Source: a virus
Length of the DNA: 35,728 nt
Strand: one strand, 5' to 3'
Virus record (IMG/VR): IMGVR_UViG_3300045988_069534
The first letter of the stretch is position 1. The number at the start of each line of letters is the position of its first letter. Under the pieces are notes generated by a model, which was given only the letters and a program-made list of their open reading frames with translations, was not told where the DNA came from and ran no database searches. Both the position numbers and the translations under genes were made by a program. Shown here one piece after another: positions 1 through 35,728 of the stretch.

Positions 1-55
1 TCCTTCGTCAGTCTTCCTGTCAAATCAACTTTGTTCATTCTTCCCTCTTACTTCT
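1..55. repeat. 55-bp exact terminal overlap, identical to 35674..35728 (circular-contig signature)
   Basis: The first 55 nt (tccttcgtcagtc...ctcttacttct) recur exactly as the last 55 nt. The ssb start codon at 35711 reappears at position 38. Confidence 0.9.
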
Positions 56-4975: not shown

Positions 4976-5525
4976 TTATGCTTCCTTTAGTGGTTTTCTG
5001 TATTCTCTTAATTCTTCCAGAATCAGATCGCGTGGTAATATGTCTCGGCAGAAGTACGCCGTTGCAAAGCTGCTGCCTTTCTTGTATTCTTCCATGCTCT
5101 CTGCGTTATGGAACCCGATCCGCTTGTCGAATGTCAGAATCTGGATCCCGTTTTTGAAATACCTGTATCTACCAACGCCCTGCAAGCTATTAAGCGGCAG
5201 CAATACCGCAAACGGCTTTTCCAGTTCGTACAGCCTTTCGATCACTCTGTCTTTCTGCGTGTATGGCGGGTTGCTCACAATCACGTCGAAGTCTTCCGGC
5301 TGATATGTGAAGAAGTCCTGCCCGTCGTCTATGCTGCTACGCTCGACTTGCCACCCCCCGCTTGAATGTCTGGAAGTACGCTGACCATTCACAATCGAAC
5401 GGACACCAGATTTTTTTCGTTTTCGGTATGTATTTTGTGATCGGATCGACCGCATAGAACGGCGTGTACTGTTCGTTTCCCTCTTCCGTCCTTGCCGCTT
5501 TCAAATATCCTGTATTCAGTCCCAT
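4976..5525 (-). pseudogene. N6-adenine DNA methyltransferase (SNPPY motif), reading frame broken at a G6 tract
   Basis: The N-terminal frame (5337..5525, ...YTPFYAVDPITKYIPKTKKIWCPFD...) stops 6 codons after the G6 run. The second frame continues GGWQVERSSIDDGQDFF...DVIVSNPPYTQKD to 4976. Removing one G gives one continuous ORF. Confidence 0.8.
5354..5359 (-). repeat. G6 (plus-strand C6) homopolymer at the methyltransferase frame break
   Basis: Plus strand reads ccaCCCCCCgc. Frame A reads TTC AAG CGG GGG GTG; frame B reads GGG GGG TGG CAA GTC. Confidence 0.9.
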
Positions 5526-5527
5526 GT

Positions 5528-6352
5528 TTATTTCCTTCCTGCTGCCTTTTGCAGCTTTTCTGTGATTTCTACTTCCCCAGTCTCCAGATTCAGCAAATAA
5601 CTTTCTGATTCATCCTGCTTCCGGTATCTTCCGTCATAGATTAGCGTGTATGTGAAGTACATAAAGCCTGTTACTTCGTGCCATGCTTCCCGTATGCTGT
5701 CTTTGTCCAGATACCAGCCCGAAGGAACCTTGACAATGTGGTTAAATGCGTTTCTGGAAGAAACTGTCTTTTTCTGTGGCTCCGGGATCACAAGATTCTT
5801 GCTGCTGTTGTATCTTCTGCCCGTGAACCCTTCACATGTTTTCATGGTTTTTTCAGAGTATTTCACAAAGTATTCTGCAAGTCGCCTGTATTGCCCGTTG
5901 TCGTCCATGGGCTTTATTGTGATCCAGCCCTTGTCCCAGCACTTTTTCAATAGCTGTGTGTCTATGGCGTTCAGCGTCATGTGGATATGTACTGCCCCGC
6001 GTTCCCCTACTTCTGGAACCCAGACGATCTTTGCTTCCTTCCCAGCTTTCTTGTATATCCGGCGAATGTTCCGCAGCAGCTTGTCAACGTCTGTCCGCAG
6101 TGCTTCTTTTGTGGCTGGTCGGTTCTCCTTCATGTATTCCCATGTGATGTACAGTGATGTTCCGTCGTAGTTCGCATTGAGGATCCACGTCAGCTTCTTC
6201 ACTGCCTGTCTGCTGTTTACCTTCTTCTGTGCTTCACAGGTCTTGTTTTCCTTCTGTCTTCTGCTCCCTTCCTTTGTGTCGGTTCTGACTGCATAATAAA
6301 ACGTGTGCTGCTTTGTCTTTCCTGCTCTGCATATTTCATGTTTGTACGGCAT
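5528..6352 (-). CDS. HUH-type rolling-circle replication initiator (Rep_1 / phiX174 gpA-like motifs)
   Basis: Motif order is SLYITWEY (motif 1-like), AVHIHMTL (HUH), then AEYFVKYSEK (YxxKY tyrosine motif). ATG 6352 is preceded by AGGGGGGA. The ORF-track TTG start at 6394 is less likely. Confidence 0.6.
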   Translation of the reverse strand: MPYKHEICRAGKTKQHTFYYAVRTDTKEGSRRQKENKTCEAQKKVNSRQAVKKLTWILNANYDGTSLYITWEYMKENRPATKEALRTDVDKLLRNIRRIYKKAGKEAKIVWVPEVGERGAVHIHMTLNAIDTQLLKKCWDKGWITIKPMDDNGQYRRLAEYFVKYSEKTMKTCEGFTGRRYNSSKNLVIPEPQKKTVSSRNAFNHIVKVPSGWYLDKDSIREAWHEVTGFMYFTYTLIYDGRYRKQDESESYLLNLETGEVEITEKLQKAAGRK

Positions 6353-16960: not shown

Positions 16961-17179
16961 CTACATGCTTTCGCCGTTTTCGTCGTAGCCGTCCGCTTTC
17001 AACGCTTCGATTACAGCTTCTTTGTGTTTCTCCGGTACGTCGTCGATCGTGATATATGTTTCTCCGTCCTCTGCGCCCTTCTCGATCACACGCTTTGCAA
17101 CTTCTACAATATGTTTTGTAGGAACGCTGCTGATCTCTCTGGATCCAACAATCACCAATTTTACATATACGCTTGTCAT
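16961..17179 (-). CDS. small hypothetical protein (72 aa; VYVKLVIVGSREISSVP resembles CD1375/XkdX-like tail-lysis junction proteins)
   Basis: ATG 17179 forms an ATGA overlap with the upstream stop. RBS AGGGGGAAA. Confidence 0.6.
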   Translation of the reverse strand: MTSVYVKLVIVGSREISSVPTKHIVEVAKRVIEKGAEDGETYITIDDVPEKHKEAVIEALKADGYDENGESM

Positions 17180-17541
17180 ACTTTGTTTTCCCCCTGTTCG
17201 TAAATTTCCGCGATCCCTTCCATGATCGCCCGCTGGTTGTCTGCTGTCTTCATTACCTCTTCGTACAGCGCCGCTACAGCTTCCAGCTGTGCTGTTGCGT
17301 TGTCCTGCATCTGTCGTGCCAGCGGCGTGTCAAGCTGTGCCACTTCCGCTGCGTATTCTTCGTACTGTGCCAGCGTCATGTCTGCATATTCATATACCCA
17401 GACTTTCTGCTTTCCTGTTTCGGTTGTGCGTGTTTCTCTTGTGATGTTCCGGCGTACTTTGATACGACCTGTTCCCATGATAATTTCTTCCGGGCGTGCC
17501 GTTTCGGTAGTTTCACCGGGTTTCCAGTTAGGCTGCTGCAT
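17176..17541 (-). CDS. hypothetical protein (121 aa)
   Basis: ATG 17541 with AAAGGAAG upstream. Overlaps the RT stop by 14 nt. The ORF-track start at 17565 is less likely. Confidence 0.6.
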   Translation of the reverse strand: MQQPNWKPGETTETARPEEIIMGTGRIKVRRNITRETRTTETGKQKVWVYEYADMTLAQYEEYAAEVAQLDTPLARQMQDNATAQLEAVAALYEEVMKTADNQRAIMEGIAEIYEQGENKV

Positions 17542-18790
17542 AGTTCGCACTTCCTTTCTTTCCATGTTTGGAAACTTTCTTTTTCAGCTGCTTTATATTT
17601 ATAAATGGACTGATCCAGCATGCAAAGACGTTGTACGAATTTGTATGCTTAAAATAGCCCATGCGGCTGATCATGCTGCTGGCGTCCAGCCAGTTGATCT
17701 TCTGCTTTTTACTTATTTTCCTTGCTTTTCGTGTGATCCTGTACAGAATCGCTTTTCTGATCGTCGTTCGTGTCCTTCTGAACAGAAAGCCCATGAAGTC
17801 CAGTGCGCGTCCGATCTCCCTTGTTACTATTTTCTTTTTCCCGTGTCTGTCGATTGTCTCCACTTCGTATTCCTTCGATAATGGGAATATCTGTTTTGTG
17901 TCTTTTATGATTAGACCCAGCTTTTCTTCGCAAAATGCTTCGATCCTCTCCAGCGCGACTTTCAGATCTCTTTTGTTTGCTCCGAAACACACTATATCGT
18001 CAACATACCGGACGCCATATTTTACGCCGCAAGCATATTTCGGCACTTTCCCGGCTGTTTTCCCTTTTCTCTTTGTTCTGGCGATATATTGCGCTGTCTT
18101 CTTTTCCTTTTCCGGTTTCCAGATCTCCTGTTTTATGTAATGATCTAAGTCTTGCAAATAAAAATTCGCCAGCCATTGACTTGTATAATAGCCCAGCGGC
18201 AAACCTTCCGGCACAGCGTCAATAATAATGTCCAGCAGGCGCAGTGTTTTTTCATCTGCAATCACTCTACGCAGTTTTGCTTTTAATCTGTCGTGTGGTA
18301 TGCTCTCGAAGAAATGGCGAACGTCAATTTTCAAAACATACTTCGTGTTTTTCCGGTCATTTCTGATCCAGCGTTCAATGTATTTCTTCCCATAATGCGC
18401 GCCGCGTCCTTTTATGGGTCCGCAAGAAAATTCATACGCGCCACGGTTTAGAACCTTTTTCAAAGTCGGATCTTTTGCAAGTTCTTCTGGTTTTGGTGCT
18501 AAGATCTGTATAATTGCATGGTGTACCACCTGTTCATATTTGTAGTACGGCTTTATGATCCTGCGCTTTTTCTGCTTGAATCCGTCGTTGATCTCTTGCG
18601 GTATGTGGTGCGCTGGTCTGAATTCTTCTTTTTTCAGTATTTCATGCAATATGCAGACATGTTCGTCTATATTATTCAGAATCTGGCGCACATCCCGTCT
18701 GTTTTTCTTTCCTTTTGCTGCTGCATAGAATGCCTTTTTCAGATTTTCTTCTGAAATAATCTTTTCGTATAGATTTTTGTAGGTTTTCAT
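17528..18790 (-). CDS. reverse transcriptase, diversity-generating retroelement (DGR) type
   Basis: NLYEKIISEENLKKAFYAAAKGKK, VVHHAI, YVLKIDVRHFFESIPHDRL, GLPLGYYTSQWLANFYLQDLDHYIK (SQ..AN signature), RYVDDIV and C-terminal SSMISRMGYFKHTNS. RBS GAAAGGAAG. Confidence 0.9.
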   Translation of the reverse strand: MKTYKNLYEKIISEENLKKAFYAAAKGKKNRRDVRQILNNIDEHVCILHEILKKEEFRPAHHIPQEINDGFKQKKRRIIKPYYKYEQVVHHAIIQILAPKPEELAKDPTLKKVLNRGAYEFSCGPIKGRGAHYGKKYIERWIRNDRKNTKYVLKIDVRHFFESIPHDRLKAKLRRVIADEKTLRLLDIIIDAVPEGLPLGYYTSQWLANFYLQDLDHYIKQEIWKPEKEKKTAQYIARTKRKGKTAGKVPKYACGVKYGVRYVDDIVCFGANKRDLKVALERIEAFCEEKLGLIIKDTKQIFPLSKEYEVETIDRHGKKKIVTREIGRALDFMGFLFRRTRTTIRKAILYRITRKARKISKKQKINWLDASSMISRMGYFKHTNSYNVFACWISPFINIKQLKKKVSKHGKKGSANYAAA

Positions 18791-18911
18791 GGATCTTCCT
18801 TTCTATTCCCTCTAGGGCTTTCCACTCTGGTACTTGCCCCGCCTACTTCGGGGTATCATTTCAAGCCGTTGGCTTCCGAATAATGTGTGCATTATGTTAT
18901 TGATCCATTTT
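18791..18911 (-). other. 121-nt structured spacer between the tail-fibre stop and the RT start (possible DGR Sp-like RNA element)
   Basis: Minus strand contains ATAATG-CACA-CATTAT (plus 18880..18895), AAGCC-AAC-GGCTT, CCCCG-AAGTAGG-CGGGG and CCCT-AG-AGGG. No ORF. Confidence 0.3.
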
Positions 18912-19090
18912 TTACAGAAATGAGCGCGCGGAAATGTTCCAGTTCGTATTCGACACAAGATTGTTGACATTCACAGCGCCGCCGCAAAGCAAGGAATTGT
19001 TGCAGCTGCCGTCCACAATCGCGTGATCTACCTGTCCGGCGTTGTACCAGCCACCGCAGCAATAATATGTGTCACTGCTGCCCCCTAACT
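18912..19090 (-). other. candidate DGR variable-repeat-like segment (single copy in window)
   Basis: Encodes ...YYCCGGWYNAGQVDHAIVDGSCNNSLLCGGAVNVNNLVSNTNWNISARSFL, an Mtd/CLec-like pattern ending N.S.N.N.NI(G/S)AR. All 9 Asn codons are AAC/AAT. GC-rich CCGCGCGC lies near the 3' end. Confidence 0.5.
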
Positions 19091-20438
19091 CCGTAGGGAA
19101 ACAACCTTGCTTCGTCATTACCTGTTTTTTGATGTAACCGCCAGACGTGCCGGACATTGAAAGCCCGGTGTTTATATATCCGTCTCCAGTCTCGTTGTAC
19201 GGTTCCGATTCTTTCACGTAATACTTACCGCCCACGTAAAGCAGCCCGTTGATTCTTTCCCATGCTCCCGCCTGCTGCTCGCAGTGCATAAACTTTCGCG
19301 GCTTGTTTACTTTTGATCCGTAACCGTAAAATCTGCCACCAGTCAGCAGTGTTCCTGTTCTTGACAGGTTGTTTGCCTGTGTGCCGCCCGTATAATTACC
19401 ATATCCGCACGCATCCTGCTTGTTTGTGGATCTTGTGAACAATGTTTCCAGTTCCCAACGCAGCTGCACGATTGAAAAATACCCAGTATTCCACAATGCA
19501 CCGTTGTTCTTTGCGAATGTGATTTCGTTTGTGCCCGTCTGGCTGGTCATTTGACCTTGACCAGCGATCGACCGCAGCTTGTTTAAAATTAAGCTGCCCG
19601 TAAACATAGGGTAAAAGGTGTACGGCTCGATTGATCCGTCCGCGCGTGTGAACGCTCCAGCTGTGAAGTCGTCGTCCAGCTGTGTGTCGCAGAATAAATG
19701 GTACTGTTTGTTGTCTTCTGTGTATCTCTTTACCCAGATCAGCGGTATGGTAGCCATGGCGTTTCCTGCATAAGTCGCATTTGATACGTCGGAAGCTGTC
19801 ACGCCGTCGATTTTCTTTGAATAGTCCGTGTGACACAATTCATAGTCAATCGTGCCGTCATTTTTCACCATGTACGGACGGTTCCCGCGCAGGATCCAGC
19901 AGTTTTCTTCGCTCCATGTTCCTTCTGTCCAGCCGCCCGTATTGTCAGCCACAACGCGCATGGGTTCAAAGCCTGCATTCATTTCAATGTAGTGGATCTT
20001 TGTTTCCGGGTTGCTGTCTGTCAGATCGTCATAATATCCAAAAAGCGTGTATGCCTGCGGCACAACCTTTGCTACGTTTGCGGCGTTCCGATTGAATAAC
20101 CCGTAATCATTGAATGGAAATGCTGCCACATAGTAAGTCGTGCCATTCACAAGCCCAGAATGCAGCAGCGCGTTTGCTTTGTACTTGTCAAGCTGCGTCA
20201 CTTCTTCGATCAGCGTTCCGTCGTCCTCTGTTTCCGGTGCTGTTCCCTCTTTGATCAAAAGTCTGTAGCCTTTTACGGTACAGATCAGCTGATTGTCAAT
20301 CACTGTGTCTTTTGGCGGTCTTACTCTGATCTTTGCCCCGCCGTCCATTGCCATGACGTTGATCGCTTCTACATTGTCCGGCGCAATTCCATTTTTCATG
20401 TTATCCAGAATATACTTTGCTGCTACAAAATCACTCAT
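18912..20438 (-). CDS. tail fibre / receptor-binding protein, putative DGR target (508 aa)
   Basis: Last large tail gene. FN3-like segment (TVKGYRLLIKEGTAPETEDDGTLIEE...TTYYVAAFPFNDYG). C-type-lectin/Mtd-like C-terminus. Start overlaps the upstream stop. Confidence 0.8.
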   Translation of the reverse strand: MSDFVAAKYILDNMKNGIAPDNVEAINVMAMDGGAKIRVRPPKDTVIDNQLICTVKGYRLLIKEGTAPETEDDGTLIEEVTQLDKYKANALLHSGLVNGTTYYVAAFPFNDYGLFNRNAANVAKVVPQAYTLFGYYDDLTDSNPETKIHYIEMNAGFEPMRVVADNTGGWTEGTWSEENCWILRGNRPYMVKNDGTIDYELCHTDYSKKIDGVTASDVSNATYAGNAMATIPLIWVKRYTEDNKQYHLFCDTQLDDDFTAGAFTRADGSIEPYTFYPMFTGSLILNKLRSIAGQGQMTSQTGTNEITFAKNNGALWNTGYFSIVQLRWELETLFTRSTNKQDACGYGNYTGGTQANNLSRTGTLLTGGRFYGYGSKVNKPRKFMHCEQQAGAWERINGLLYVGGKYYVKESEPYNETGDGYINTGLSMSGTSGGYIKKQVMTKQGCFPTELGGSSDTYYCCGGWYNAGQVDHAIVDGSCNNSLLCGGAVNVNNLVSNTNWNISARSFL

Positions 20439-23483: not shown

Positions 23484-26288
23484 TTATGTGGGTTTTAATT
23501 TCAATACCATTTGTCGTGTCGCGTTCCGCGTCTGTCTGGCTGTTTCTGACGGTGAAAGTTCGCGTGGGCTGTATATGTTTACATTCTGTGTGAAGCCGCC
23601 CTGCTGCCCCTGCTGCGCTGTCTGGCGGTTGCTTCCGCTGCCTGCGGCAATATATCCGTCAATCGTTGTCGGTACGCTCTTTCTGGAAGCCTTGGCGAAC
23701 GCGTCCGCGTTGTCTTCCATACCTTCTTCATAACCGATCAGCTGACCAGCCGCCATCTGCTTTCCGACTTGATCCCGGAATACCCGTGACGGGCTGTGGA
23801 TCCCCAGCGCTTCTTTTGCTGCATCCAACGCGCTTTTTGCTGCATCTGCCACTGCACTTGCAAGGTTTTTCGCCGCATTCACTACACCGTCTTTGATGCC
23901 GGAAATGATATTTGATCCCAGTTCGCCCCAGTTTACATTCTTGAAGGTTGTAAATATTGCCGTCACAATCTGCGGTATTGCAGCGACAAGCACCGGGATT
24001 GCCTGTATCAGTCCGCTAATGAGCGCGCCGATCAGCTGTATTCCTGCTGATATAATCTGCGGCAGATTCTGGATCAGCACATTTATGATCGTTGTGATGA
24101 TCGTCGGCAGCATTGCGATCAGCTGCGGGATTGCCTGTATCAGACCATTAACAAGCGCCGTCAGTATCTGGACGCCAGCATCTAAGATCTGCGGCAGTGA
24201 CTGTATGATCACTGTAATAATTGTCGTGATGATCGTCGGTAGCATGTCCACCAGCTGCGGGATTGCCTGCACAATGCCTGTGATCAAAGAAACAAGCAGA
24301 TTCAGTCCTGCTTCTACGATCTGCGGCAGATTTTCTGCAATCGCCTGTACAATTACAGGGATCAGATCGACTATGGATTGTATAAGTGTTGGGATTGCTT
24401 GCGTGATACCATTTATCAGATTTACAAGGATCATTGCACCTTCACTGATAATGGATGGTAGATTTTGTGTGATTGTTGATGTTATCGTCGTGATCAGCTG
24501 CGGAAGAATTGCCGCAAGCTGTGGTATTGTCTGGTTTAGTCCTTGCAGTATGCCTGTGAATAGCGTTACTGCTGCGTTTAATACTTCCGGCAGTAGCTGT
24601 GGAAGCATTTCTATTGCCGTCTGGATCAATGTAAAAAAGCTGTTCGTCAACGGTTCGATCAGTGATTGTCCCAGCCCTTTTGCTTCGCCTGCAAGTTCCT
24701 TCGCTGCTCCAGATAACCCGGTGATCAGCTGTGGTACTGCTTGCAGGATCCGCGGTACTGCTGCCATGACGCGTGGCGCTATGTTGTCGATTACCGTTAC
24801 CACGGAATCAACCAATTCCCCCACCAACGCGTCAAGATCTGCGTTTTCGTCCGCAAGTCCTGTCTGTAGGTTCGTCCACGCCGCTTTCGCAGAAGCGATT
24901 GACCCTTGAATGGTTGTGGCTGCTTCTTTTGCTGTCGTTCCGGTGATTCCCATTTCCGTCTGTACGACGTGGATTGCGTCTACTATGTCGCCATACTGCG
25001 ATATATCGTATTTTACGCCGGAAATTTTCGTTGCATCATCCAGAAGACGCTGCATTTCTTCTTTTGTGCCGCCATACCCCAGCTTCAAATTGTCAAGCAT
25101 TGTGTAATTTGCTTTCGCAAAGCCAGAATATGCGTTTTTGATGGATTCAATGTCTGAACCCATCTTATTTGCGTTGTCTGACATGTCAGTGATTGCCATG
25201 TCTGCTTTTTCGGCGGCTGCTACGGTGTCGCCGTCAAGGCTCTGGATCAACGCTGCGGACATGCTCGTCACGGTTTCCATGTAGTCGTTCGCTGACATTC
25301 CCGCCGTCTTGTATGCCCCGTTTGCTTTTTCGATCACGGCTTCTTGTGCCTTGATCAAGTTGTTGTACTCGTCTTTTGCTTCTGTTGTTGTCTTTCCTAC
25401 GCCCTTTGCGTATTCTGATAGGCTTTGCCCGCCTGCTCCGAATAGTGTTTCCACACCGCCTACCAGCTGTTCATAGTCGCCGTAGTTTTCCACGGCTCCT
25501 TTTGTAATTGCCACCATGGCGGTTGCCGCTGCTGCTGAAAATGTCGTAAAAGCCTTGATCGTGCCGCCGACTGTTGTTGTCAGCACTGACCAGCCGCCCT
25601 TCGCTGCGGTAGTAGCTGCGCTTCCTGCTGCCTGCACTACCTGTGTTACGCTTGGCATTTTCCCTGCCAGATCGCCTGCTGCCGCTTTTGCTTTCCCGAA
25701 TGCGTCCGCAACTTTCTGCACTGCCGGGTGTGCGTTTTTGAAGGCTTCCACCTTCTGCCTTGCCCCGTCAACCGCAGTTCCGATTGTTTTTACAGTCTTG
25801 CTTTCCTTCACCGTCTCGGTGATCTTCTGCTTTGCATTTCCAAAAGCTGTCGTTAGCTTATTCACTCCGGGGATCTTCTGCGCTATGTTAGCAAGCGATT
25901 TCCCGAAGTTCTGCGCCCCGGTCTTCATTTTATCGAATGTACTGATCTGACTTTTTAGTGAATCCAGTTTCTGCGCTGTGGCTGCGATCTCTCGCTGCAA
26001 GTCTCTGTATGCGTCGTCGTTTACATCTTTTCCTGCTGCTGCCATCTGCTTTTCGGCTTCTGTCAGCAGTTTCATTTTTTCTTCCGTTTGCTGTACTGCC
26101 TGTTTCAAAAGCACTTGTTTTTGTTCCAGCAGTTCCGTGTTTTTGGGATCCAGCTTCAAAAGCGAATTGACGCCTTTTAGTTCTTTTTGCAGGCTGGCTG
26201 CTTCGGCGTTCGGCTTTTCAAGCGCTTTCACAAGGTTTTCAGTGCTTCCGTTTATCTCGACTGTGATCCCTTTCAGTGCCTTTCCCAT
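23484..26288 (-). CDS. tail tape measure protein
   Basis: About 934 aa, helical and Ala/Gln/Ile-rich with internal repeats. C-terminal SPSRVFRDQVGKQM pattern. ATG 26288 with GAGG 5 nt upstream is preferred over the ORF-track start at 26315. Confidence 0.92.
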   Translation of the reverse strand: MGKALKGITVEINGSTENLVKALEKPNAEAASLQKELKGVNSLLKLDPKNTELLEQKQVLLKQAVQQTEEKMKLLTEAEKQMAAAGKDVNDDAYRDLQREIAATAQKLDSLKSQISTFDKMKTGAQNFGKSLANIAQKIPGVNKLTTAFGNAKQKITETVKESKTVKTIGTAVDGARQKVEAFKNAHPAVQKVADAFGKAKAAAGDLAGKMPSVTQVVQAAGSAATTAAKGGWSVLTTTVGGTIKAFTTFSAAAATAMVAITKGAVENYGDYEQLVGGVETLFGAGGQSLSEYAKGVGKTTTEAKDEYNNLIKAQEAVIEKANGAYKTAGMSANDYMETVTSMSAALIQSLDGDTVAAAEKADMAITDMSDNANKMGSDIESIKNAYSGFAKANYTMLDNLKLGYGGTKEEMQRLLDDATKISGVKYDISQYGDIVDAIHVVQTEMGITGTTAKEAATTIQGSIASAKAAWTNLQTGLADENADLDALVGELVDSVVTVIDNIAPRVMAAVPRILQAVPQLITGLSGAAKELAGEAKGLGQSLIEPLTNSFFTLIQTAIEMLPQLLPEVLNAAVTLFTGILQGLNQTIPQLAAILPQLITTITSTITQNLPSIISEGAMILVNLINGITQAIPTLIQSIVDLIPVIVQAIAENLPQIVEAGLNLLVSLITGIVQAIPQLVDMLPTIITTIITVIIQSLPQILDAGVQILTALVNGLIQAIPQLIAMLPTIITTIINVLIQNLPQIISAGIQLIGALISGLIQAIPVLVAAIPQIVTAIFTTFKNVNWGELGSNIISGIKDGVVNAAKNLASAVADAAKSALDAAKEALGIHSPSRVFRDQVGKQMAAGQLIGYEEGMEDNADAFAKASRKSVPTTIDGYIAAGSGSNRQTAQQGQQGGFTQNVNIYSPRELSPSETARQTRNATRQMVLKLKPT
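23946..24623 (-). repeat. about five tandem 132-bp (44-aa) repeats inside the tape measure gene
   Basis: AIP(Q/T/V)L recurs at residues 597, 641, 685, 729 and 773 of the ORF-track protein, exactly 44 aa apart. cagctgcggg recurs at 24120 and 24252. Confidence 0.85.
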
Positions 26289-26953: not shown

Positions 26954-26981
26954 TGCGGGGCTATGTATCACATGCCCCGCA
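26954..26981 (-). promoter_or_regulatory. stem-loop after the major tail gene (partial terminator or mRNA stabiliser candidate)
   Basis: 8-bp GC-rich stem TGCGGGGC / GCCCCGCA with a 12-nt loop. No U-run on the minus strand. Confidence 0.4.
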
Positions 26982-26993
26982 TTTCCTTGATTG

Positions 26994-27716
26994 TTAGCCT
27001 TTTGCTGCTGTCTGTGCTGCCAGAAATTCTGTGATGATTTCGGCTTTTGTTGTCTTTGTGATCGTGTAGCCTTTCGCTGCTGCAATGGTCTTGATCTGAT
27101 CTACGGTCAGCGCGTTCAATTCCTCGCTTGTGTATTCGTTCTGGTACTCTTCTTCGTACTCTTCGACAAATTCAATCAGCGTTCCGCGGCTGTCGTGCGG
27201 CTTGCAGTTGAATTCTGCGTCAATTACTGTCGCTGAATCCGCAGCAAAAGTGATGGTGAATCCTGCTGTATTTCTTCCGACGATCAGCAAATAGCAGTTT
27301 CCTTCCACCGGATCTTCATGTACAAACAAGATCACATACTGCTTGCCGTCGTCGTTGGCTGTGCCGCCGACCTTCAAGCGTCTGTACTTCTTGCCGTTTT
27401 CTCCATCCTCTGTGGTTACGACTGCCGTTGCGGACAGCTTCGCCAGTGAATTTGCATTCCATGTGAAAAGACCTGTCTTGAAGGTTGCTTCTTCGTCCGT
27501 CAAGATCTCTTTTACGACCATCCCCAGATCGTCTTTTTCTGTTGTCATTGTGGGCTTATACTCCACGCTTGCGCCGTTCTTGATCCATCCGGTGTGGTTT
27601 TCTTCTGTCATTACTTTTTTCAGAATCTCTGTGAATGTCTCCGGCAATGTTCCTGTGTATAACATTGTGTACACTTTGCCGGATCCCAGCACAACTTTTT
27701 CCTTTGATCCTTTCAT
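26994..27716 (-). CDS. major tail protein with C-terminal HeH/Rho_N-like helical domain
   Basis: Position, size (240 aa) and beta-rich body fit a major tail protein. The last ~45 aa (SEELNALTVDQIKTIAAAKGYTITKTTKAEIITEFLAAQTAAKG) are homologous to the capsid protein C-terminus. Confidence 0.8.
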   Translation of the reverse strand: MKGSKEKVVLGSGKVYTMLYTGTLPETFTEILKKVMTEENHTGWIKNGASVEYKPTMTTEKDDLGMVVKEILTDEEATFKTGLFTWNANSLAKLSATAVVTTEDGENGKKYRRLKVGGTANDDGKQYVILFVHEDPVEGNCYLLIVGRNTAGFTITFAADSATVIDAEFNCKPHDSRGTLIEFVEEYEEEYQNEYTSEELNALTVDQIKTIAAAKGYTITKTTKAEIITEFLAAQTAAKG

Positions 27717-29113: not shown

Positions 29114-29140
29114 GGCAGCAAGGTTTTTCACCCTGCTGCC
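29114..29140 (-). promoter_or_regulatory. stem-loop after the major capsid gene
   Basis: 7-bp stem GGCAGCA / TGCTGCC with a 13-nt loop, between the capsid stop (29153) and the connector start. Confidence 0.35.
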
Positions 29141-29152
29141 TTTGCTTATCCC

Positions 29153-30493
29153 TTACGCCGTAGCTGCGGTCTGTGCTGCTAAGAATTCCGCGATCACTTC
29201 TGACTTTGTAGTCTTTGTGATTGCGTAGCCCTTATATGCTGCCAGTCCCTTGATCTTCTCCACGGTCATTGCGTTCAGTTCTTCTTCCGTCCATGTGGTC
29301 TTTTCTACTTCCACGGTGTCGGTTCCCGTCACCACGGTGTATGCCGCAGGCTGTAACTCGTTAATGTCAAGCAGCAAGAATGAGCTGTTGTCCTTCGGGC
29401 GACCATTGCCGTACAGGAACGCTGCGTATACTCTTTCACGTTTCAAAAACCGCACGCTGTCGTCGTACTCGATAGTACCTTCTTTTCCAGTTCCGATTCC
29501 TGCAAAATACTGTTCTGCAATTCCCAGAATTGCTTCACCCTTTGTCAGCGCTTCTGTCTGAATGATTTCTGTCGGGTACGGCAGGACATTGTTTGCGAAT
29601 GTTCCGTCCGGGCGCTGCACCGTTGTTGCGGGCATTACTTTTTTCCAGTAATCTTCCGGGCTTACCAGCATGATCAGTGATGCAACCGTTCTGGGGCGAC
29701 CGTTTCTTGTCACTGCTAATTTGCCAACCAGCCCGCCGTATGCTTCCGGTGTAAACTTTTTGACTTTGATCGCAGTCTTTTTCACGTAGCTTTCGCCGTC
29801 TCCGTGTGCCGCTTCAATGTCTCTGTTCATTCCGATAGGCATTTTCACGCCTGTTCCGCAGACGATACCTTCTTCCAGACCGACGTAGATCGCATCTTTC
29901 AGCACTTCGCGCACGTAGCTGTCTAACCATGTTGCGCCCAGATCCAGCATGGACTTTGCAACCGGAAGAAATGCGGTCAAGCTGTACATTAACATGTCCA
30001 GCTTCTCGAAGGATCCTTCCAGTTCCTTTGTAATCTCCGCTGTAATGTCGCCCCAGATCGCTTTCTGCTTTCCGTTTTTGTTCATGATCCATTCTGTGAT
30101 GTAGGATGTGTTCTCGAAGTCGATTTTCGCAAGAAGCGGGTGTTCCAGCTTCAAGCTGTCGTATACGTCTTCAAAAACTGTCTTCGGCATTGTCACGTCA
30201 AGGGACGCAAGCGCCTGTTTCGGGTTCTCGGACTTCATGGCGCCGATCACCGCTTCATAATACTTCTTTTCCTCGCTGGTCAGCTGGCGAAGTCCGCGCG
30301 CTGCCATTGCCTGTGCGTCCAGCTGCTCGACTGCTGCCACATCTTTTGCACGCTGTAAGATCTCTTCCTCGATTCCTGCTGCCATTTCTGCCATTGCCTG
30401 TGCCACCTGTTCGGTGTCTTCGGTTTTCAATGCTTCATTGAATTTCTGCGCCAGCTGCTCGCGTGACAGCTGTTCAATGTCTTTGTTTTTCAT
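29153..30493 (-). CDS. HK97-family major capsid protein with N-terminal delta-like coiled coil and C-terminal HeH/Rho_N-like domain
   Basis: Follows the ClpP-type protease. 446 aa. The last ~47 aa (TEEELNAMTVEKIKGLAAYKGYAITKTTKSEVIAEFLAAQTAATA) are homologous to the major tail protein C-terminus. Confidence 0.9.
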   Translation of the reverse strand: MKNKDIEQLSREQLAQKFNEALKTEDTEQVAQAMAEMAAGIEEEILQRAKDVAAVEQLDAQAMAARGLRQLTSEEKKYYEAVIGAMKSENPKQALASLDVTMPKTVFEDVYDSLKLEHPLLAKIDFENTSYITEWIMNKNGKQKAIWGDITAEITKELEGSFEKLDMLMYSLTAFLPVAKSMLDLGATWLDSYVREVLKDAIYVGLEEGIVCGTGVKMPIGMNRDIEAAHGDGESYVKKTAIKVKKFTPEAYGGLVGKLAVTRNGRPRTVASLIMLVSPEDYWKKVMPATTVQRPDGTFANNVLPYPTEIIQTEALTKGEAILGIAEQYFAGIGTGKEGTIEYDDSVRFLKRERVYAAFLYGNGRPKDNSSFLLLDINELQPAAYTVVTGTDTVEVEKTTWTEEELNAMTVEKIKGLAAYKGYAITKTTKSEVIAEFLAAQTAATA

Positions 30494-35282: not shown

Positions 35283-35711
35283 TTACGAAAACGGTAGTTC
35301 TTCGTCTATTCCTTCCGGTATGTTCATAAAACCGTTTGCGTCTGTCTCCGGCTGTGCTGGCGCTTGCTGGTTTCCCTGCTGCCCTGCTGCCGCTTTGCTT
35401 TCTGCAAACTCCCATTCCTCGACAATGACGTCTGTTGTGTATACTTTGCCGCCGTCTTTGTTGGTATAGCTGCCCGTCTGTATTCGACCGGAAATTTCCA
35501 GCTTTGTTCCTTTCTTGCAATACTTTTCCAGACTTTCCGCACTCTTCCCGAATGCTACGCATGATATGAAGTCTGCGCCTGCATCCTTCTTCCGTCTGTT
35601 CACCGCCAGTGTGAAGCGTACAATGCAGATCTGTTCCTGTGATTCCTGCCCGTTCGTCCAGCGTGATTGTGGGTCCTTCGTCAGTCTTCCTGTCAAATCA
35701 ACTTTGTTCAT
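35283..35711 (-). CDS. ssb: single-stranded DNA-binding protein with acidic C-terminal tip
   Basis: MNKVDLTGRLTKDP...FTLAVNRRKKDAGADFISCVAFGKSAESLEKYCKKGTKLEISGRIQTGSYTNKDG... and C-terminal IDEELPFS. RBS GAGGGAAG. Its 5' end lies in the terminal overlap. Confidence 0.93.
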   Translation of the reverse strand: MNKVDLTGRLTKDPQSRWTNGQESQEQICIVRFTLAVNRRKKDAGADFISCVAFGKSAESLEKYCKKGTKLEISGRIQTGSYTNKDGGKVYTTDVIVEEWEFAESKAAAGQQGNQQAPAQPETDANGFMNIPEGIDEELPFS

Positions 35712-35728
35712 TCTTCCCTCTTACTTCT
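35674..35728. repeat. second copy of the 55-bp terminal overlap
   Basis: Identical to 1..55. Confidence 0.9.

Follow-up and report, generated by a model that had tools for sequence, protein, structure and literature searches.

We analyzed a diversity-generating retroelement (DGR) in the IMG/VR virus record IMGVR_UViG_3300045988_069534, a stretch of 35,728 nt as assembled that represents the complete circular genome (∼35.67 kb) of a temperate siphovirus and is called the window below. An earlier note, made from the sequence alone, had described the locus as a DGR-type reverse transcriptase (RT) next to a tail-fiber gene, with neither a template repeat (TR) nor avd. We find that the locus is a canonical and ordinary DGR of a known architecture without avd or another accessory gene, located on the tail fiber of an uncultivated Lachnospiraceae phage of the gut, and that the apparent want of a template repeat reflects the contig, not the element. 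Compared with its relatives, the window lacks exactly one 254-bp unit, made up of the body of the variable repeat (VR), the initiation of mutagenic homing sequence (IMH) and a 141-nt spacer. This unit was probably lost by a collapse of the two repeats during assembly.

The Only Repeat in the Window Is a Template Repeat behind a Variable-repeat Flank

The 508-aa tail-fiber open reading frame (ORF; 20438..18912) and the 420-aa RT ORF (18790..17528, with all motifs quoted in the earlier note) were both recovered on the minus strand. The components of the locus are listed below, where L numbers denote related loci.

18912..20438, minus strand: tail-fiber gene and DGR target, 508 aa as assembled (P0121), ending 121 nt before the RT start
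19024..19063, minus strand: 5' flank of the VR (target-gene sequence), found in relatives directly 5' of the VR
18910..19023, minus strand: sole repeat copy, equivalent to the TR; 114 nt, of which 26 are adenines, with 100% identity to the TRs of L001, L051 and L052
18910..18933, minus strand: TR 3' end of the IMH* type (TTCCGCGCGCTCATTTCTGTAAAA), by alignment to relatives
18791..18909, minus strand: spacer between TR and RT, 119 nt, with the same sequence as in L001; the Sp-like portion of the DGR RNA
17528..18790, minus strand: predicted DGR RT, 420 aa, with an LGYYTSQ motif and YVDD

The window segment 19023..18910 aligns by blastn to both repeats of L001, its VR and its TR, and a three-way alignment reveals that the window copy equals the TR at every adenine site, the first included. 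Its 3' end is of the TR type (...GCGCTCATTTCTGTAAAA) rather than the VR type (...GCGCCCTTACTGTAAAA), and the sequence downstream is the flank of the TR. The 5' flank, in turn, matches the VR flank of L001 and not its TR flank (...TTTTCCGTCGCCTGC), which places the junction between VR flank and TR body between positions 19024 and 19023. The last codons of the tail-fiber gene had been likened in the earlier note to a template repeat or to a barely diversified VR; the former description is accurate, as these codons equal the TR base for base, whereas the latter is at odds with the IMH*-type 3' end and the TR downstream flank that follows it.

What is missing can be defined equally well. By alignment, the window has no VR-type IMH (TTCCGCGCGCCCTTACTGTAAAA), and the 141-nt spacer found downstream of the VR, with its inverted repeats GGCTTC..GAAGCC and GGGGGC..GCCCCC, has no match in the window. 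The arrangement of an IMH at the VR, an IMH* at the TR and an inverted repeat following the VR is thus not seen in the window, and L001 and L051 have both ends. We could not detect a second repeat copy in the window by an adenine-tolerant ungapped scan, a seed-8 repeat search or the word-7 blastn self-comparison that the earlier note had proposed, and the adenine-tolerant scan returned only A-rich chance matches outside the repeat region. The adenine-free strings at 18972 and 19046, which the note had found once each by eye, indeed occur once each and on neither strand elsewhere. The window hence holds one copy and no TR/VR pair, and because L051 and other relatives have such a pair, its absence belongs to the contig and not to the element.

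Most Relatives Carry the Canonical Two-repeat Layout

A search of IMG/VR with the RT returned 38 loci. A repeat pair of ∼110 nt is present in 32 of them, with mismatches falling nearly all on adenines of the RT-proximal copy. The TR in these relatives ends ∼120 nt before the RT; the VR starts 180–290 nt upstream of the TR (for the two most distant loci, up to ∼550 nt) and lies at the 3' end of the tail-fiber gene. The RT of L001 is 100% identical and its DNA 98–99% identical to the window, and its layout is as follows.

L001: VR 5514-5626, 141-nt spacer, TR 5768-5881, 119-nt spacer, RT

A pattern search with the TR flank yielded 8 metagenome and 3 IMG/VR loci and gave no matches in GTDB genomes. 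Every metagenome locus with sufficient sequence upstream (7/7) is colinear with L001 across an 803-nt region. Canonical contigs close to the window comprise L001, L003, L040–L046 and L052, the last with a SPIRE-style contig name, and the same-strain contig L051. L051 (Logan ERR321633_4605, 35,940 nt) contains VR, 141-nt spacer and TR, and outside the repeat it aligns to the window with 0 mismatches, for 9,513 nt on the upstream and 11,496 nt on the downstream side. The prophages examined from isolates and metagenome-assembled genomes (MAGs; L054–L063, L065, L067 and L078), whose sources are Acetatifactor, Lachnospiraceae, Butyrivibrio hungatei and Clostridium sp., are canonical as well, with A-biased mismatches between TR and VR, and none is collapsed.

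All VRs that could be cleanly aligned among close relatives (8/8) differ from the TR and from each other, nearly only at TR adenines, and the TR is identical in most of these loci. As the VRs vary at adenine sites between close genomes over a near-invariant TR, the alignments show an element that is active across strains, with ongoing diversification.

Two relatives, L005 (5768-5885) and L045, have a repeat at the TR position with non-A bases at many former adenine sites. The 3' half of the L005 repeat reads GTGTTTGTGGTCGACC...GCGACTTGGCGCGC, and the L005 prophage is L058, the isolate genome ‘Bacterium 1XD8-76’. Judged by their bases, these TRs look eroded or VR-like; mutagenic homing into the TR, VR-to-TR conversion and a VR/TR chimeric assembly are possible causes.

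The Assembled Target Protein Is a Chimera

The target protein belongs to phrog_5302 (‘tail protein’, 3e-66). We predicted its structure with AlphaFold2 (predicted local distance difference test score, pLDDT, 92.8) and found that its top PDB match in Foldseek is TaqVP (PDB ID 5vf4), a DGR variable protein with a C-type lectin (CLec) fold (E = 3.4e-8, probability 1.00). The viral structure matches are phage tail (collar) fiber proteins and a protein with an FGE-sulfatase-like domain. The model thus predicts a CLec-type target with a C-terminal variable region, in line with the Mtd/CLec-like tail-fiber end proposed earlier. This C terminus is rich in Asn (9 in the last 49 residues), and the richness itself is a real signal; that all of these codons are AAY, to which the earlier note had pointed, is true by definition, since Asn is encoded by AAY alone.

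The 90% protein cluster of the target has 2,173 members. Among the 15 listed, 14 are 521 aa long, end in ...SARPYCKTPTTATASDIEA and show diversified residues at the Asn positions; the 508-aa version from the window, ending in ...NISARSFL, is the only short one. The family consensus has a longer C-terminal tail, too. Close to its 3' end, the VR has lost 1 nt compared with the TR, so that the true protein continues for 13 residues further. By these comparisons, the protein encoded in the window is a chimera, which represents the true protein up to residue ∼472 and takes its last ∼36 codons and its stop codon from the TR. It is without the 13-aa C-terminal extension that the other 14 listed members of the cluster all have, and P0121 is probably never produced by the phage.

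The RT Is Predicted to Be of the DGR Type, and Its Lineage Lacks avd

The RT matches Pfam RVT_1 (9e-14) and phrog_1423 (3e-96). Its closest solved structure is the Bordetella phage enzyme bRT (PDB ID 8ub7, 5.9e-15), with group II and retron RTs at ∼1e-5. The signature of DGR-type RTs ([LIV]GxxxSQ in motif 4 and YxDD) is present as LPLGYYTSQ and YVDD, and the bRT counterpart of the former motif is GIPIGSLTSQ. Assignment to the group II, retron, Drt or AbiA enzymes was rejected, as all NCBIfam scores are under the curated cut-offs (best bits versus cut-off are 69/300 for group II, 54/200 for Drt3a and 42/235 for retron). By motif and family, the enzyme is thus predicted to be a DGR RT.

We scanned the 48 ORFs of the window against Pfam. 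No Avd family, which we take to be PF05635, is found among the best 25 of the 37 families matched, the others apparently being weaker than E = 2.6e-4, and the earlier statement that the window contains no avd stands. The gap between VR and TR in relatives is 141 nt of non-coding sequence with no gene in it. An avd gene lost in the collapse, as the earlier note had considered, does not agree with this: the missing 254 bp are accounted for by the VR body and the non-coding spacer, and avd does not occur at this place in any relative. For this lineage, the lack of avd is real. It is also an already known state: DGRs without an accessory gene (‘Architecture A’, with a TR-RT core) make up 29% (75 of 372) in a previous survey, in which one RT lineage (Lineage 3) is without avd (Wu et al. 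2018, NAR 46:11, PMC5758913).

An acidic 121-aa ORF (pI 4.7; 17176..17541, minus strand) overlaps the last 14 nt of the RT ORF. It is kept in close relatives only (L001–L006, RT identity of at least 72%) and matches no family, and was for these reasons set aside as a candidate accessory gene. The acidic ‘CH1’ accessory proteins reported from avd-less DGRs are 160–169 aa long (Wu et al. 2018, PMC5758913).

The spacer between TR and RT contains a hairpin (∼18875..18863) and a second helix (∼18840..18836 paired with 18818..18814) that encloses a conserved AGTA. Compensatory changes are seen in 9/10 predicted pairs across 19 relatives, and the AGTA is invariant. By this covariation, the spacer is conserved as a structure, consistent with an RNA element of the DGR, and in this avd-less clade its helices may be where the DGR RNA is primed or bound by the RT. 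A private single nucleotide polymorphism (SNP) of L048 and L049 at 18816 (C>T) would change a G-C pair to G-U.

An Assembly Collapse Probably Accounts for the Missing Unit

In the normal order, the target gene with its C-terminal VR is followed by the 141-nt spacer with the VR-type IMH and hairpins, the 114-nt TR, the 119-nt structured spacer and the RT. According to established DGR biology, an RNA comprising TR and spacer would be reverse-transcribed with misincorporation at adenines, and the resulting cDNA would replace the VR, recoding ∼12 residues on the CLec tip of the receptor-binding protein. In the contig, one copy stands for both repeats, leading from the target gene into the TR body and on to the TR downstream flank. 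This is an exact anatomical match to one of the explanations offered in the earlier note, a collapse of VR onto TR with loss of one repeat copy and of the VR 3' flank. The hidden insertion of 0.4–0.7 kb that the note had expected is too long, the missing piece being only 254 bp.

How the collapse may have come about is suggested by the ends of the contig. The 55-bp terminal overlap reported earlier is an exact direct repeat (1..55 versus 35674-35728 in our repeat search) and suggests a circular de Bruijn graph assembly from short reads with a final k of 55. Read lengths probably fell short of the 114-nt repeat, in which case no read would span the repeat together with both flanks. VR and TR share exact runs of 25–29 nt in every canonical contig, which is at least k = 21 and less than k = 55; such runs would tangle the assembly graph at small k (first-stage k = 21), and with a heterogeneous VR and a loop of only 254 bp, the loop may be skipped or clipped by the assembler. 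It is this combination of short reads, shared 25–29-nt runs, VR heterogeneity and a short loop that leads us to regard the assembler as the probable cause of the collapse.

Other contigs behave similarly at this place. The L053 contig (100% identity to the window) has its start 7 nt within the TR, directly after the first variable adenine, and the L003 and L030 contigs start inside the VR. As independent contigs begin inside TR or VR, these repeats are regular assembly breakpoints. The collapse recurs in the background of L048 and L049 (ERZ28577755 and ERZ28578209), which differ from the window by 3 private SNPs. Two distant relatives (L009:1261-3485 and L011:4045-6001; RT 37–38% identical) show a fused layout as well, in which an Asn-rich, TR-like target end extends up to the RT, and L011 is short of 259 nt versus L029, equivalent to one VR-TR unit. 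In the RT clade, 3 of ∼40 loci examined look collapsed, and several further contigs break at the repeats. This recurrence fits a systematic artifact, for which a chimeric protein without the conserved C terminus and the canonical form of the same strain in L051 also count.

Several observations weigh against an origin in assembly. No known VR of the strain group has at least 55 nt in common with the TR, so that a simple merge at k = 55 would require a VR not observed so far, whose 5' half resembles the TR; 2/14 listed cluster proteins are TR-like over their first 18 codons, which amounts to ∼52 nt if the codons match. The assembler MEGAHIT outputs unitigs, which are expected to break at repeats and not to cross them. 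The identical collapsed structure is present in L048 and L049, which by their SPIRE-like contig names are probably from SPIRE and thus assembled with MEGAHIT, as used by that resource (PMC10767986).

The end distances of L048 and L049 from their private SNPs are inconsistent as a measure of k. We found no matches when we searched IMG/VR for the collapsed-junction pattern, and a term search of Roux et al. 2021 for assembly problems at DGRs returned none.

Alternative Origins of the Fused Repeat

The 254-bp unit could instead have been deleted in vivo by recombination between the VR and TR direct repeats (87% identical), either homologous or by single-strand annealing, an explanation that we consider possible but less likely. 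The product would be a dead DGR, with no IMH and no separate VR, and with a TR-encoded tail-fiber tip that is 13 aa short. Prophage decay through deletion between repeats is commonplace, and single-strand annealing followed by replication can give a body that is purely of the TR type. A deletion would explain why three or more contigs of different samples have the fused structure and why the junction is crossed within single contigs by what appear, from their names, to be MEGAHIT assemblies, and that no observed VR has 55 nt or more in common with the TR would count in its favor. However, the window matches the canonical L051 at 100% identity across 21 kb, yet differs by 3 SNPs per 2.5 kb from L048 and L049. 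With the window nearer to a canonical contig than to the other collapsed ones, a deletion of single origin is excluded, and at least two independent and very recent deletions would be needed, each of which has grown dominant. Moreover, the L051 VR differs from the TR already at repeat position 5, so that a crossover giving an all-TR body would have only 4 nt of homology on its left. The deletion product would also be devoid of the conserved C terminus, and not one of the isolate and MAG prophages listed above is collapsed.

A bolder version would have the fusion both real and functional, in a lineage that repeatedly collapses VR onto TR, uses the single repeat, with spacer and RT still attached, as its own template and target, and erodes its adenines over time; in a milder form, VR-TR recombination would be a frequent natural route of DGR death. 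We regard this as a long shot. Even less credible is a non-canonical DGR with a single repeat, in which the target 3' end and the spacer serve as the template and the cDNA homes to the same copy. TR, spacer and RT are indeed intact and could be co-transcribed with the target gene. However, the window, L048 and L049 retain 26/26 adenines of the TR unchanged, leaving no trace of self-mutagenesis, and the VR-type IMH is absent together with the downstream hairpin region. The same strain has a normal VR/TR pair in the two-repeat layout, which also speaks against the non-canonical or TR-independent cassette envisaged in the earlier note. Although remote targets are known for some DGRs (PMC5758913), an RT that works with a remote TR or VR, for example on the host chromosome, or that is not of the DGR type, is just as hard to believe, and L051 and L001 effectively refute it. 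In addition, the genome is complete and circular and contains no further copy, the adjacent repeat is the TR of the same element, and the RT is closest to bRT and under the cut-offs of the other RT families.

Taken together, an assembly collapse remains the explanation that we favor. A DGR may thus look TR-less merely through the merging of repeats in a short-read assembly, and pipelines that demand a TR/VR pair will miss collapsed DGRs. Collapsed pairs also put chimeric tail-fiber proteins with TR-encoded ends, such as P0121, into databases. Should the deletion be true, one route of DGR decay would be documented. Either outcome, artifact or deletion, leaves our knowledge of how DGRs work unchanged, and the value of the case is mainly cautionary.

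Genome Context

The window encodes an integrase, helix-turn-helix regulators, a single-stranded DNA-binding protein, terminase, portal, capsid and tail proteins, a holin and a GH25 lysin. One member of the tail-fiber cluster is located on a 949-kb contig of Gallintestinimicrobium sp., which suggests that the host is likely Gallintestinimicrobium or another member of the Lachnospiraceae. With 2,173 distinct sequences in the tail-fiber 90% cluster, the phage is very common in human gut metagenomes; a megablast search of the DGR region against annotated phage records gave no match. Rfam and tRNA scans of the window returned no matches. Two further repeats were observed: a tandem 132-nt direct repeat (70% identity; 23983-24246) inside a 943-aa tape-measure-like gene, and a 147-nt direct repeat pair (71% identity; 26979-27125 and 29138-29284) whose copies are 2.2 kb apart.

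Comparison with Known DGRs

The element most closely follows Architecture A of Wu et al. Target (VR), TR and RT are arranged in this order on one strand without an intervening gene, be it avd, HRDC, MSL or any other; the mismatch pattern is adenine-specific, and the target has a fold of the CLec type. The window contig differs from this architecture in that VR and TR are merged. By its lack of avd, the element may belong to Lineage 3 of the same study.

As in the DGR of Bordetella phage BPP-1 (mtd-avd-TR-brt), a phage receptor-binding protein is diversified at its C-terminal CLec tip, the 3' ends of VR and TR differ as IMH and IMH*, and a spacer separates TR and RT. bRT is the closest solved RT and has the motif ...G(I/L)P(I/L)G..TSQ..AN.Y in common with the window enzyme. 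Unlike in BPP-1 and the avd-containing, BPP-1-like ‘Architecture B’, no Avd adjoins TR or RT; the VR-TR gap is only 141 nt, and the RT has 420 aa compared with 328 aa.

Among solved structures, TaqVP from the Thermus aquaticus DGR comes closest to the modeled target protein, with an identity of only 13–15% and a template-modeling (TM) score of 0.36–0.47. In contrast to TaqVP, the phage protein carries an additional FN3-like domain at its N terminus and is a member of a phage tail-fiber family.

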